35,657 nucleotides of DNA from the IMG/VR virus record IMGVR_UViG_2541047892_000001; one strand, 5' to 3'. The stretch is from a virus. Taxonomy: Duplodnaviria > Heunggongvirae > Uroviricota > Caudoviricetes. The position numbers and the translations under genes were made by a program. This document shows positions 23,076-27,109 of this stretch, in pieces (the stretch's first letter is position 1; every line of letters starts with the position of its first letter). The notes beneath the pieces are model-generated. The model saw only the letters and a program-made list of their open reading frames with translations, searched no databases and was not told the DNA's origin.

Positions 23076-23793
23076 AACTGCTGCCTCCCCATGTGAGATA
23101 TCGCGGTGCCAGTTCGCGCAGGATGCGCTGCGGATAATGGCGGTTCTCCCGCCAGCTGGCCGCATTGCGTCCGGCATTCACCGTGGCGACATGTCCGAAC
23201 CAGCGGGTGCTGTCCAGACCTTTCTGTGATGCAAGCCGCCTGTCCCGTTGTACCCAGCCCAGACCACCGTTATAGCCTGACAGTGTCATGGCCATACGCT
23301 CGCAGTCGTTGGCGGCGCTGACGCGCTGCCACAGCCAGCGGTCATAGCTGACCAGCGCCCGGATGGCCCATGCCGGATTAAACGGCTCACGGCTGTTAAG
23401 TCCCGGCATCAGCTGACTTATCCAGTCGGCAGTGGCAGGCATGAACTGCGCCAGTCCCTGAGCACCAGCCGGCGAGACCGCATCAGGTCGCCAGCCGCTT
23501 TCCTGATGCAGTTGCGCGGCGAAATCTGCCACCGGCGCAGACAGTCCCCATTCAAGCCGGGCATTACGGATCACATCATCGCGATACTGCAGCGCAGCCT
23601 GCGGAGGCTGCGCTGCGCGGGCCTGACTGAAGAAGCCACCACACCAGAGCAGCCAGACAATCACCAGGTTGCCAGCAAGCTGCCACCAGAAGCTGTATTT
23701 ATCGTTACGTGGTTCGCCGTGTCTGATGGCGGTTACGCCCAGACCAAAGGCGAACAGAATAATGAGGGTGATTTGAGGCCAGTTCATGGTCAC
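23059..23793 (-). CDS. Endolysin, lytic transglycosylase (SLT domain) with hydrophobic N-terminal segments
   Basis: 244 aa; SLT catalytic region QLHQESGWRPDAVSPAGAQGLAQFMPATADW; two hydrophobic stretches in the first 60 aa; start overlaps the holin stop (ATGA). Confidence 0.82.
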   Translation of the reverse strand: MTMNWPQITLIILFAFGLGVTAIRHGEPRNDKYSFWWQLAGNLVIVWLLWCGGFFSQARAAQPPQAALQYRDDVIRNARLEWGLSAPVADFAAQLHQESGWRPDAVSPAGAQGLAQFMPATADWISQLMPGLNSREPFNPAWAIRALVSYDRWLWQRVSAANDCERMAMTLSGYNGGLGWVQRDRRLASQKGLDSTRWFGHVATVNAGRNAASWRENRHYPQRILRELAPRYLTWGGSSCVASG

Positions 23794-24140
23794 AGTCCTG
23801 TTGCCACAGCCAGACAGACCGCTGCAACAATCAGTGCACGGCGGATTAACGCAGCAGAAAATACAAGGTGAAGGCCGGTCTGCACAGGGAAACGCCCTTC
23901 AGCCATCAGCCTGTCTTCATGTTTCAGGTACTGACCGGGACGGGCTTTGGGGAAGAGCGAACGGTCAAGCCAGTAACCCAGCACTGCTGCCAGCGTGATG
24001 AGTGCCAGCTTGTAGATCACAACAGGCAACTGCTGTGGCGAGACCAGAGCGATGGTGCCCAGCAACAGCACTGAGGTCAGCAGCCAGCCGCTGAGGCGAG
24101 GTTTTTTAACAGGGGGAATGAATTTTTTCAGGCTTTTCAT
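23790..24140 (-). CDS. Putative holin (three predicted TM segments)
   Basis: Three hydrophobic helices; AAGGAG 6 nt upstream of the ATG at 24140 (alternative ATG at 24170); first gene of the lysis cassette. Confidence 0.55.
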   Translation of the reverse strand: MKSLKKFIPPVKKPRLSGWLLTSVLLLGTIALVSPQQLPVVIYKLALITLAAVLGYWLDRSLFPKARPGQYLKHEDRLMAEGRFPVQTGLHLVFSAALIRRALIVAAVCLAVATGL

Positions 24141-24203
24141 GTGTGTCTCCTTGTTTGGTGGAGACAGCATCACAAATGTGGCGGGATACGGATTTTAAAG
24201 CGC

Positions 24204-24243
24204 GTTATAAGTGTTCGCAGAGGGAAGCGACCAGAATGGTCGC
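24204..24243 (-). promoter_or_regulatory. Candidate activator-dependent late promoter for the lysis operon
   Basis: Minus-strand TATAAC (24209..24204) lies 17 nt downstream of a perfect dyad GCGACC-n5-GGTCGC (24227..24243) occupying the -35 position, about 65 nt upstream of the holin start. Confidence 0.4.
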
Positions 24244-24270
24244 ACACAAAACATAGGGGAGGCAAGCACA

Positions 24271-24594
24271 ATGACTGAACCGAAACAGTCTGGTATTAAA
24301 AAAGGGTTCCTCTTTGGGAGCAGAATCGGAGAGCAGAATAAAACTTACACGCTAAGCTTGGATGCATGTTGTCCAACCGAAGCGATTATAGAGCTGAAAA
24401 ACGTTCTGGTTGCACTTGAAGAGAGAAGAAGTCATTTCGCCAGCGGAGAAAACAACGTCATGCTAATTGGCGATGTGGCGGCGACATCACGATATAAAAC
24501 CGCACCTAATCCTGCGATTCAGTTATCCTTCGACCAACGAATACTGGAAGCGGAATCAGCAGTTCCCAGAACGGTTCGTCCTCACCAGTCTTAA
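24271..24594 (+). CDS. Hypothetical small protein (107 aa), divergent from the lysis operon
   Basis: ATG at 24271 preceded by GGGGAGG with 8-nt spacing; 3' end overlaps the convergent 191-aa gene by 89 nt, so one of the two may be miscalled. Confidence 0.3.
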   Translation: MTEPKQSGIKKGFLFGSRIGEQNKTYTLSLDACCPTEAIIELKNVLVALEERRSHFASGENNVMLIGDVAATSRYKTAPNPAIQLSFDQRILEAESAVPRTVRPHQS

Positions 24595-25081
24595 CTGGGG
24601 CTGCTTCACCCGACCAGTAAAGCCAAGCACGGTGATACAGTTCCAGCACCGGGCAATCACTGTTCAATAACCTCATATCTCCGCGATGCACCTGCTCATT
24701 TGTGATGACTTCATATATCGGTGCCGTTCTTATTTCGTCTTCGCCTCTCTCATCAGCCAGTAATTCCCTGAACTTCCTGACTTCACTCAGATGCTGACAG
24801 GCAAACAGTGACTGATAGCGGGAAGGTTTATCAGGAAAATGGCTACGGCGAACTAACTCAAACACCAGACCGACCAGCAGACTTCTGCTGATTCCACTGT
24901 CATCTTCCATTTTAGGGCCGGGGTTATAGAGATAGTTATACCCGTGACTCGAAAGGCCATTGGGATACATCTGATGAAGAAAAGCGGCCAGTTCTGGCAT
25001 TTCAGGCTCGTATTTTCCGGTAATTACATGACAAGGCGAAGGCAGACGACTAGCGGAATCAAGTGTGTAATACGTTCCCAT
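24506..25081 (-). CDS. Hypothetical accessory protein (191 aa), no recognisable family
   Basis: ORF in the accessory region between lysis genes and repressor; separated from the upstream cassette by a 409-nt non-coding gap. Confidence 0.5.
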   Translation of the reverse strand: MGTYYTLDSASRLPSPCHVITGKYEPEMPELAAFLHQMYPNGLSSHGYNYLYNPGPKMEDDSGISRSLLVGLVFELVRRSHFPDKPSRYQSLFACQHLSEVRKFRELLADERGEDEIRTAPIYEVITNEQVHRGDMRLLNSDCPVLELYHRAWLYWSGEAAPVKTGEDEPFWELLIPLPVFVGRRITESQD

Positions 25082-25196
25082 TCAGAAAACAATCCTTATC
25101 GAACAAACACTGCACGTAGGTAATGCATCCAGTAAATCGCGTTAATAGAAATCATGTATCTCAAAACTTCACTCTGAACTCTGACAGTGAAAGAAC

Positions 25197-25228
25197 GACC
25201 AGCCCGGTACCCGAACTCCGGGCTGGTC
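25197..25228 (-). terminator. Perfect 11-bp stem / 10-nt loop hairpin; possible terminator of the repressor-linked cassette
   Basis: GACCAGCCCGG-tacccgaact-CCGGGCTGGTC; on the minus strand it is followed by GUUCUUUCA, a weak U-tract. Confidence 0.35.
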
Positions 25229-25490
25229 ATCGCCCCACAGGAATGCACTGTGAGCCGACCGAGGTTCAGTCAGTCTCGCGAGACCAGACTAGCCTGCCAT
25301 ATTTTTTATAATTATAAAAGGGTTACAGATTATGAAAATGCAGACATTCCCCATCGCTCCATGGATTGGTTGTAAACGCCGCCATGCCAGACATATTCTG
25401 GCCGATGTTTCCTAGCACGCACGAATATGAGGCAACTGACGAGAATAAATGATGCGTCAGAATGAACCGTCGACACCGTGATTTCAGGTT

Positions 25491-26102
25491 TCAAAAATCT
25501 GGAGAAGGTATATCTATCTGACCGACGTTTCGTAACCACATCTCTTGCTTTGTTTCTTTATTGGTTCGGGCGATATCATTAGCATTGTATCTGCATGTTT
25601 TAACCGCAACCTCACGAACTCGTGCTATAGGAGTATTTGTGTAGAATTTAAGATCTTCCTCTACCGCTCGTATGGCGATAAGCCCTCCACTCTGAAAACC
25701 GCTGGTTACTTTTAAAAGATCAACTCCTTGGTTATAAACGGCATTACATACGTTAGGGAACTCATCTTCTACAGTTTTGGGGATCATCAGCATATCAGGA
25801 AGACCCTGTAACACGTTATCTTCCTTTGGCCTCCATGCCCTTCCCAAAAAAGCTGTTATAGGTTGTGGTGTAGAAAGAAATGCCAATTCTATATAAAACA
25901 AACCACTGTAGTGATCGCGTAACGAATAGACTAGTAAATGATCTTTTCCAGTTTTACTTGCATTGCTAAGTTTTATATCAAATGGTTTTTTCTGGTACTT
26001 AAGCAATCCATCAACTCCCGCATAATAATGCTTTGAAACAGCAACAGAAAGTTGATGTACTTGGTTCGGATAATCTGTTCTATATCGTTTAATTAGCCCC
26101 AT
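25491..26102 (-). CDS. Hypothetical accessory protein (203 aa), third gene of the repressor-linked cassette
   Basis: AT-rich (about 36-40% GC by eye); GAGG ribosome-binding site 6 nt upstream of ATG; 20 nt downstream of the 328-aa gene. Confidence 0.6.
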   Translation of the reverse strand: MGLIKRYRTDYPNQVHQLSVAVSKHYYAGVDGLLKYQKKPFDIKLSNASKTGKDHLLVYSLRDHYSGLFYIELAFLSTPQPITAFLGRAWRPKEDNVLQGLPDMLMIPKTVEDEFPNVCNAVYNQGVDLLKVTSGFQSGGLIAIRAVEEDLKFYTNTPIARVREVAVKTCRYNANDIARTNKETKQEMWLRNVGQIDIPSPDF

Positions 26103-26122: not shown

Positions 26123-27109
26123 CTATTTCAAAATATAACGATATTTACTATCTGGAGTGTTTTGTTGGTCAAGTAATAGAGCTCTACATGGGGCGGTCAA
26201 AACACGGGCATAACGACCATCGGGGTTTATGTTGATGTAACAAGTTTTCCCTTTAACACCATAAGATTCAGGTATTATTGCCTGTGTAGACACCGTGAAT
26301 TTAAGGGTATGCCAGCCCGATTTTTGCTTGTAGCTTGAAACCGAATGGAAATCATCTGAGTACTTATTTAACCCTGGAAACATGCTGCGTAATGCTGGGA
26401 TGGAATCTTCTATTATTTTGTCGTTGGTTTTAATGTTAAAAACGCTGGTTTCAGTAGATGCTACTGCTTTAGCATTTCCCCATTTACCAGCGAACACAAT
26501 CATTCCCACGAAAAATATTGCGACAAGAACTAACGCTCCCCCCAACACTACTACATGAGGCTTCCGGCTTCTGGTTGGTACAGTCGCGACTGATTTTGCC
26601 CCGCTGTCCGATGGAGGTGATAGAGTTTTACTCTCATCACGAATATTCAGCAGATCATCAAAATAACCAAACACAGCCTGCAACTGCTCTTTGTCCAGGC
26701 CTTTAAGATGGGTTGTACCGAAATGCTTCAGACAGTATCTGTCACGGTCAAGACGATACCTAGGGTCAGTAAGCACCATTATTTTGCTGACCAGAAGATT
26801 ACAGTCCTTCATATTCTGGATCTGTTGTGCATATCTCTGGAGGATCTCAACCGCACCATGATAATCAGCCGCAGTCATTTCATTAACTGTTTTGGTATTA
26901 AGTTTCGTGTGGATCGTCATCCATAGTTCGCGCTTACTTTCCCCCAGATCAACCAATTCATCCATCAATCTGTGTAAATCGCGTTTTTGCAGCAACGAAA
27001 TTGGTTGCTGGGCAGAGGGAAGTATGTCAGCAGAATAGTTATGAATGGTAACATCACCGCTGACAACGTTACCCACATCTCCGTTAACTGTTTGCTTCTC
27101 TTTACTCAT
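26123..27109 (-). CDS. Hypothetical bitopic membrane protein (328 aa): N-terminal Gly-rich motif, about 190-aa cytoplasmic domain, one TM, about 110-aa C-terminal domain
   Basis: TM helix HVVVLGGALVLVAIFFVGMIVFAG; start codon overlaps the repressor stop (ATGA); AT-rich. Confidence 0.65.
   Translation of the reverse strand: MSKEKQTVNGDVGNVVSGDVTIHNYSADILPSAQQPISLLQKRDLHRLMDELVDLGESKRELWMTIHTKLNTKTVNEMTAADYHGAVEILQRYAQQIQNMKDCNLLVSKIMVLTDPRYRLDRDRYCLKHFGTTHLKGLDKEQLQAVFGYFDDLLNIRDESKTLSPPSDSGAKSVATVPTRSRKPHVVVLGGALVLVAIFFVGMIVFAGKWGNAKAVASTETSVFNIKTNDKIIEDSIPALRSMFPGLNKYSDDFHSVSSYKQKSGWHTLKFTVSTQAIIPESYGVKGKTCYININPDGRYARVLTAPCRALLLDQQNTPDSKYRYILK

Follow-up and report, generated by a model that had tools for sequence, protein, structure and literature searches.

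A small gene of an undescribed family convergent to a DUF2441 gene in a Mu-like prophage of Escherichia coli

The IMG/VR virus record IMGVR_UViG_2541047892_000001 (Duplodnaviria; Heunggongvirae; Uroviricota; Caudoviricetes), a stretch of 35,657 nucleotides (nt) that was analysed over its whole length and is called the window below, contains at positions 24271-25081 two convergent open reading frames (ORFs) that overlap at their 3' ends. Judging from substitution patterns among relatives, both are genuine protein-coding genes, each with its own signature of protein-level selection. The plus-strand product is a member of an undescribed protein family with a constrained core of about 77 amino acids (aa), and the minus-strand gene encodes a DUF2441/BC2332-like protein with a predicted ADP-ribosyltransferase (ART) fold. 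The two genes are inherited together and diverge together, and across several unrelated phage backbones they stay tail to tail with abutting ends; in the window, the overlap of 89 nt is a derived read-through tail of about 30 codons, specific to the lineage. We lean towards explaining the pair as a mobile accessory cassette, in which an ART-fold DUF2441 effector and a dedicated small partner protein are encoded tail to tail and the overlap is incidental. The features of the locus are as follows.

24256..24262, plus strand: Shine-Dalgarno motif GGGGAGG, 8 nt upstream of the ATG at 24271-24273
24271..24594, plus strand: small gene, 107 codons from the ATG at 24271 (ORF list)
24271..24501, plus strand: constrained core of the small gene, codons 1-77 (substitution pattern and ends of homologues)
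24502..24594, plus strand: unconstrained C-terminal read-through tail, codons 78-107 and stop (antisense of the DUF2441 C-terminus)
24506..25081, minus strand: DUF2441 (BC2332-like) gene, 191 aa, predicted ART fold
24506..24594, both strands: 3'-3' coding overlap of 89 nt (ORF list)

These coordinates confirm an earlier sequence-only reading of the window, in which a 107-aa plus-strand ORF preceded by GGGGAGG was described as overlapping a 191-aa minus-strand ORF by 89 nt. The plus-strand frame is open from 24211, and a GTG start at that position would yield a product of 127 aa.

Coding evidence and protein families

The length of the plus ORF is in itself uninformative, as 97 ORFs in the window reach 90 aa or more, and many of these run antisense to real genes. 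Relatives were gathered by locus searches covering other genera as well as viral and metagenomic contigs; the homologous loci are given below by L numbers and homologous proteins by P numbers. Over codons 1-77 the window and the L019 group share 61% nt and 64% aa identity, and their differences are distributed over the three codon positions as 19/18/51, with proportions of nonsynonymous (pN) and synonymous (pS) differences of 0.24 and 0.88, respectively (chi-square p = 6e-6). Compared with L006, the small-ORF frame has an omega of 0.34 (uncorrected) and no stops, while the other five frames have omega of 0.5-1.8 and are full of stops. Indels in the small gene comprise whole codons only, and a purine-rich Shine-Dalgarno-like motif lies 6-10 nt upstream of the ATG in every lineage, despite unrelated upstream DNA. 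A domain of about 65 residues corresponding to the small ORF recurs as the C-terminus of a 243-aa protein (L028) and with other N- or C-terminal extensions. Because of the third-position excess, pN far below pS, whole-codon indels, retention of the Shine-Dalgarno motif and the recurring domain, the plus ORF is considered a real gene.

The earlier reading allowed that one of the two ORFs might be spurious. For the plus ORF this would mean a chance open frame in the intergenic region between DUF2441 and the holin, and three observations could be cited for it: the frame is left unannotated by PGAP in 32 of 33 genomes, its product matches no family, and the comparison with Klebsiella phage KP12, taken alone, shows no codon bias. 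In this 91%-identical phage the frame is intact, and the comparison is ambiguous, with 80% aa identity (below that of nt) and substitutions distributed as 11/8/11 by codon position. The deep third-position bias, pN much lower than pS, zero stops in frame against many elsewhere, in-frame indels, recurrence of the domain fused within larger ORFs and a Shine-Dalgarno motif kept in every lineage make a spurious frame extremely improbable. Both frames show independent coding selection and both, as the check proposed in the earlier reading had asked, are conserved across distant relatives.

The small family is rare: a search of 5.8e9 proteins yielded 16 homologues, the most distant at about 50% identity, and one of 1.8e9 only 19 cluster representatives. 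Its consensus is ..GFLFG..GEKNKTYTLSVDA..P.EAI..LK.AL.ALE...SHFAEGENNVMMIGNVAATSRYK, and stand-alone homologues terminate at 71-85 aa, at the end of the core. The protein has no match in Pfam, PHROG, NCBIfam or PADLOC and no relative among PDB sequences, and no membrane segment is predicted in it. The AlphaFold2 model, built on a 17-sequence alignment, is of low confidence, with a predicted local distance difference test score (pLDDT) of 54; it suggests a core composed of a beta-hairpin (residues 12-31) and a helix (residues 35-51), followed by the motif SHFA.GENN..IG.V.ATSRYK. A HicB/DUF1902-like or AbrB-like antitoxin fold was considered for the small protein and dropped for want of Foldseek support in the PDB. 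In P0046, a metagenomic representative of 189 aa, the small-ORF domain is fused to the C-terminal part of a replication-initiation O-like/primosomal protein (phrog_678, E 1.4e-26); the fusion could be either genuine or an artefact of assembly or deletion. Viral-contig scans with P0057 and P0045 as queries yielded no matches, and a mixed alignment of distant sequences (A4) proved too diverse to be used in locus searches.

Of the 33 complete E. coli genomes with the small gene, 32 have no PGAP annotation of it in RefSeq, and one has it annotated (WP_024160641.1). The locus tags of NZ_CP025892 (L001) skip from CXX03_RS01525 (holin) to RS01535 (DUF2441), which suggests that a gene model at the position of the small ORF was once assigned and later withdrawn.

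The 191-aa minus-strand product matches Pfam family PF10386 (DUF2441) over residues 71-158 (31.8 bits, cut-off 25; E 1.7e-7) and phrog_5663 end to end (E 2e-65), is annotated as DUF2441 in RefSeq, and has PF10386 in all 27 of its 27 homologues. The statement of the earlier reading that neither product resembles a known family thus holds for the plus ORF, for which no family was found, and fails for the minus ORF. The AlphaFold2 model of the DUF2441 protein (25-sequence alignment) has a pLDDT of 89.4; it has the fold of the solved member BC2332 (2AUA) and the ART core fold, and its structural neighbours include the toxins DarT, MbcT, RES and ParT of toxin-antitoxin (TA) systems. The DUF2441 profile matches the 2AUA sequence with E 1e-11, the subfamily of the window being only about 20% identical to BC2332. 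The fold assignment agrees with the placement of DUF2441 in the ART clan of Pfam (PMC7955679), with the listing of "BC2332-like" proteins within the ADP-ribosylation superfamily of SCOP (d.166.1.6; PMC3000352), and with a ProFunc structure-template analysis in which the pocket of BC2332 was matched with the active site of diphtheria toxin (PMC3024214). In the alignment the subfamily keeps S44, H46, G47, R88, D135, E173 and the C-terminal LIPLP without exception, and Y50 and E124 almost so; these residues are candidates for a catalytic H-Y-E (or R-S-E) set in the NAD+ pocket. The literature on DUF2441, PF10386, BC2332 and the RefSeq accessions comprises fold and clan assignments only, with no functional study; members of the DUF2441/BC2332-like family (PF10386; 2AUA) have no demonstrated activity, and the subfamily of the window is phage-borne.

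Co-inheritance and decay of the pair

A convergent adjacent DUF2441 gene is present at 41 of the 46 loci with a small-ORF homologue, many of which are redundant. At the convergent loci the stop codons range from 9 nt apart to an overlap of 107 nt. The pair occurs in the following independent contexts.

Window, L002-5 and L029: adjoining the holin
L033: holin, with an extra helix-turn-helix (HTH) gene between
L006/7: directly after gemA-mor, in a classical Mu-type early operon (Pfam GemA and Mor)
L019-25: near a CI/S24 repressor, in another phage type
L028: domain fusion, in a Salmonella prophage

In the last of these (L028, 3577-4308), the 243-aa protein consists of a phrog_3787-type N-terminal domain with a Walker-A-like motif GPTGSGKS and the small-ORF domain, and is convergent to DUF2441. 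The identities of the two products fall together across the lineages, the values for small ORF/DUF2441 being 100/100, about 85/94, 66/68, 63/64, 62/60, 48/63 and 36/53%. Three variants of the small protein that lack SHFA.GENN (P0016, P0051 and P0055) adjoin an unrelated 258-aa gene rather than DUF2441. In one of them (P0016, Enterobacter cloacae) the N-terminal beta-hairpin and helix are kept and the SHFA.GENN...ATSRYK half is gone. Since variants without it adjoin unrelated cargo, the C-terminal SHFA.GENN...ATSRYK half appears to be the DUF2441-specific part of the small protein, and the N-terminal beta-beta-alpha module was probably reused with other C-termini and other cargo.

The same modularity might be read as hitch-hiking, i.e. 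the two genes are unrelated small neighbours and the small one belongs to a module of the insertion site or promoter. The 5' region and the first 30 or so codons are indeed common to L009, P0052 and P0059, in which the C-terminal half and the cargo differ; the small gene occurs without DUF2441 (L036/37), DUF2441 occurs without the small gene (L026 and L031), and each decays alone. However, backbones without any flanking DNA in common (after mor, near the CI/S24 repressor and in the fusion) have this very pair, identically oriented and with its stops abutting, the SHFA.GENN-type C-terminal half tracks DUF2441, and the two proteins co-diverge. Hitch-hiking is therefore doubtful, and a dedicated partnership of the two proteins is preferred.

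Several observations weigh against this partnership. First, many of the loci represent one phage lineage, and the number of independent observations is accordingly small, about five or six. Second, either gene may be damaged or replaced beside the other. In Erwinia tracheiphila (L005, 4455-5550) an insertion sequence lies in the 3' part of DUF2441, which is cut to 157 aa, and the small gene with its tail is intact; in L036/37 a 250-aa gene stands in place of DUF2441 beside an intact small ORF. Conversely, in Limnobaculum parvum (L040) the small gene is reduced to frameshifted fragments (KIYTLSV / NHFAEGKG / MMIGNVA) just past an intact DUF2441, and in Salmonella (L038/39), where DUF2441 is likewise intact, only 98 aa are left of the fused partner, with the remnant IRIMLIGDVRAS. 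Third, the small partner is missing beside the most distant of the DUF2441 homologues examined, two genes at 35-37% identity: one has an unrelated abutting convergent gene of 70 aa (phrog_6581), the other has none. Fourth, close relatives of the small gene give an omega of only about 0.4-0.56, with the unbiased 11/8/11 distribution given above. Finally, a Foldseek search of the PDB with the low-confidence model of the small protein gave no match with E < 0.9. The sequence-only reading had named disruption of one frame in relatives, at an otherwise conserved locus, as grounds for its refutation, and on this point the outcome is mixed, each gene having decayed in a few lineages while the other is intact.

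The phrog_6581 gene was seen in a lambdoid prophage of Enterobacter hormaechei (L026, 3001-4386), where a 37%-identical DUF2441 is located between terminase and lysis genes; the stop codons of the 70-aa gene and DUF2441 abut directly, and a 184-aa protein with a weak HEPN-like match follows.

The pattern of losses also bears on the classical type II TA model, in which the DUF2441 ART toxin would be lethal unless neutralised by the small labile protein as its antitoxin. The structural neighbours DarT, MbcT, RES and ParT, the small partner with a folded N-terminal and a poorly predicted C-terminal part, the mobility of the cassette, and the orphan small genes that outlast the loss of DUF2441 (L005 and L036), as antitoxins would, are all consistent with it. 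Nevertheless, the genes are convergent at every locus instead of forming an operon, and two independent lineages (L040 and L038/39) have an intact DUF2441 reading frame, full-length and with all family-invariant residues, next to a partner that is frameshifted or truncated. Nor was any TA or defence model matched in PADLOC, Pfam or NCBIfam; in PADLOC-DB 2.0 neither the proteins of the pair nor those of the two neighbouring accessory genes had a match at E <= 1. A strict TA dependency between the two genes is unlikely, because each can be lost alone, and we regard the type II model as distinctly improbable.

Anatomy of the overlap and control signals

The overlap encodes the invariant FWELLIPLP end of DUF2441, including E173, L175 and P177-P179. 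Within it the DUF2441 frame is constrained (omega 0.07-0.6), whereas omega in the small-ORF frame is at least 1; codons 78-107 thus appear from their substitutions to evolve neutrally in their own frame, without selection. Residues with pLDDT below 50 in the model (58-96 and 105-107) cover most of this tail. The tail is missing in the lineages L019-25, L033, L028, L036 and L009, and at several loci a short gap separates the stop codons.

L019-25, L034 and L050-52: gap of 4 nt
L033: gap of 8 nt
L028: gap of 9 nt

Mu-like lineages of enterobacteria have overlaps of 77, 80, 89 or 107 nt, in each of which the small frame continues until it meets the first stop on the antisense of DUF2441. In the window the overlap arose because this lineage has no stop codon after ...SRYK. 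Taken alone, it is an ordinary consequence of a missing stop codon and no sign of a regulatory device.

The flanks of the pair contain the following features.

23790..24140, minus strand: holin (Holin_2-3), the first gene of the late/lysis operon (Pfam PF13272, E 1.5e-40; RefSeq coordinates)
24141..24270: divergent control region, from the holin start at 24140 (alternative GTG at 24173) to the small gene
25197..25228, minus strand: perfect 11-bp GC-rich hairpin upstream of DUF2441

In the divergent control region, 50-70 nt upstream of the start of the holin, the motif TTTTAAAGCGCGTTA (24193-24207) hardly varies among all the related prophages, including those with a different cassette; it was aligned across five lineages and, besides the window, is present in L053, L028, L033 and L009. 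The motif may be a site for an activator or the late promoter, or else a divergent promoter shared by both sides. The -10-like TATAAG at 24206-24211 may be a promoter element. A consensus scan of 24141-24270 gave no canonical sigma-70 site, only weak matches, and in the combined sigma-70 and terminator scan sites were no more numerous than in shuffled sequence. A 7-bp inverted repeat (24227-24233 / 24237-24243) is found in the same region; a compensatory change in its KP12 counterpart was considered and rejected, as by eye the change breaks the pairing.

On the other side, an unannotated segment of about 143 nt (25188-25330) holds the 25197-25228 hairpin; of 5426 complete E. coli genomes, 555 have the segment conserved, with an identity of about 92%. 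A promoter-like TTTTCA-16-TATAAT lies by it at 25338-25311 on the minus strand, and in sister prophages with different cassettes the segment adjoins a Dam methylase gene. It is probably a regulatory or terminator element of the backbone that flanks the variable site, and the hairpin is a candidate for either a terminator-like structure of the upstream accessory genes or a 5'-leader structure.

The consensus scan found no convincing intrinsic terminator between the two genes or just past them: a weak one is predicted on the minus strand at 24290-24273, and none on the plus strand beyond the small gene. As the space between the genes is too short for a terminator, a 3' overlap of the two mRNAs is probable in every lineage. 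The pair occurs in both orientations relative to the repressor gene, and therefore each gene would need its own promoter.

These features are the basis on which the sequence-only reading of the pair as an antisense-regulated module has to be judged. Under that reading the link between the genes would be at the RNA level, with convergent transcription and 3'-overlapping mRNAs repressing each other through interference or RNase III-sensitive duplexes. It gains from the tail-to-tail geometry, with stops at most 9 nt apart or overlapping in every lineage, from the need for separate promoters, and from the weak minus-strand terminator, as the only one present, so that the DUF2441 mRNA would span the whole small gene. 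Yet the length of the coding overlap is not conserved, and the overlap is constrained in the DUF2441 frame only; folding of the strand antisense to the small gene revealed nothing unusual (z = 0.39), and the Rfam search (E <= 1) gave no family, only a chance snoRNA match. Purifying selection on the small protein would, moreover, be needless for control by RNA alone, and with the lack of a structured RNA or Rfam match it also sets the pair apart from type I TA systems, which have a non-coding antisense RNA as antitoxin. As the sole link between the genes antisense control seems unlikely. It is possible as an added layer on the partnership of two proteins, and antisense damping may be a secondary effect of the 3' overlap.

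The variable site, known systems and a proposed role

The window represents a Mu-like transposable prophage of E. coli, as it has annotated Mu-type head and lysis genes on the minus strand (holin, SLT transglycosylase, DUF3486, DUF935 and head morphogenesis) and Ner-like, DUF3102, DDE transposase and ExeA-type genes on the plus strand. The gene layout is presumably akin to that of BcepMu. E. coli 503025, B7A and some 30 further complete genomes contain a prophage 100% identical to the window.

The holin is the backbone edge of the accessory region, and the pair sits next to it, at the edge of the variable segment 24141-27567 between the holin and the HTH repressor; the earlier reading had likewise placed it at the edge of the accessory region. 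The GC content decreases from 55-63% (late genes) to 46-50% (the pair) and 36-44% (deeper in the variable segment); GC skew changes sign between the two genes, as predicted for opposite coding strands. Other genes occupy the same site in sister prophages (strain 83972, L009 and L036). The pair is thus absent from otherwise collinear sister phages and deviates in base composition, as phage morons and accessory cassettes do, and it constitutes a compact accessory cassette of two genes at a variable site of low GC content, with the late (holin) operon on one side and the repressor on the other.

Two further accessory genes are encoded on the minus strand downstream of the repressor, at 36-44% GC. 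One (25491-26102) encodes a 203-aa protein without a family in any library; the other (26123-27109) encodes a 328-aa protein of phrog_10002, whose N-terminus is weakly similar to the flagellar regulator Flk (NCBIfam E 1.6e-11, far under the cut-off). At the same site in the widespread sister prophage of E. coli 83972 (L053, 1118-2241) there is a different convergent overlapping pair, in which a 247-aa plus-strand gene with a phrog_3787-type N-terminus and a GPxGSGKS motif overlaps a 134-aa minus-strand gene by 25 nt; convergent pairs at this hot spot seem to be the rule. The 134-aa gene (L053, 1837-2241) and a 146-aa gene directly upstream of the Limnobaculum DUF2441 (L040, 2001-2441), neither of which has a Pfam family, share by eye the pattern F..I.G.I...L ... 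T[IL].WL...[GS]YI ... LT.K.L..LNATP, indicating a possible relationship.

The layout differs from that of TA modules with ART toxins (DarT-DarG, ParT-ParS, Xre-RES and MbcT-MbcA), which are co-directional operons with antitoxins of known folds (macro domain, Xre HTH and MbcA): the window pair is convergent, its small partner is outside those families, and the partner decays beside an intact DUF2441. A closer parallel may be found in pore-forming colicins, where a small immunity gene lies on the opposite strand, tail to tail with the effector, and has its own promoter, so that expression of the two is uncoupled. The small gene of the window is likewise on the opposite strand and tail to tail with its neighbour, and by analogy its product might have a protective role; colicin immunity proteins, however, are membrane proteins that act against secreted pore formers, whereas no membrane segment was predicted here. 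In the type I TA systems txpA/RatA and bsrG/SR4 of Bacillus prophages, a small hydrophobic peptide is the toxin and a non-coding RNA the antitoxin, and the two come from convergent transcription units with overlapping 3' ends. The window pair is also prophage-borne and convergent, but it encodes two proteins, each under purifying selection, and lacks a conserved overlap. Finally, it resembles phage morons and the variable sites of Mu-like prophages in having a lower GC content than the backbone, in lying between conserved modules and in being replaced in sister prophages. A single moron is made up of promoter, gene and terminator, while this pair is a two-gene convergent unit recurring in several unrelated backbones.

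In the cassette that we favour, the small protein would be a dedicated partner of the ART-fold enzyme that modulates it at the protein level, possibly as an inhibitor with an immunity-like function, or else as an adaptor or regulator. The convergent layout with separate promoters would allow the partner to be expressed independently of the enzyme. The cassette would most likely serve in phage-host or phage-phage conflict, i.e. in exclusion, defence or host modification by NAD+-dependent ADP-ribosylation. A more specific version, which we offer only tentatively, is an undescribed two-component conflict system of temperate phages, in which a diphtheria-toxin-like ADP-ribosyltransferase (DUF2441) would be gated by a convergent protein of a new family with its own promoter; such a system could act in superinfection exclusion, abortive defence or host take-over, the 3' antisense overlap providing a second layer of control.

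We know of no dedicated convergent small partner gene described for the DUF2441 family. The analysis corrects a gap in annotation: in 32 of the 33 complete E. coli RefSeq genomes concerned, a real gene was missed. DUF2441, whose structure was solved in 2005 and which is still without a function, gains a conserved genetic partner and a phage-accessory context, and these make the family experimentally approachable. If the reading as effector and modulator is true, a convergent, immunity-style layout would be added to the known ART-based conflict systems.

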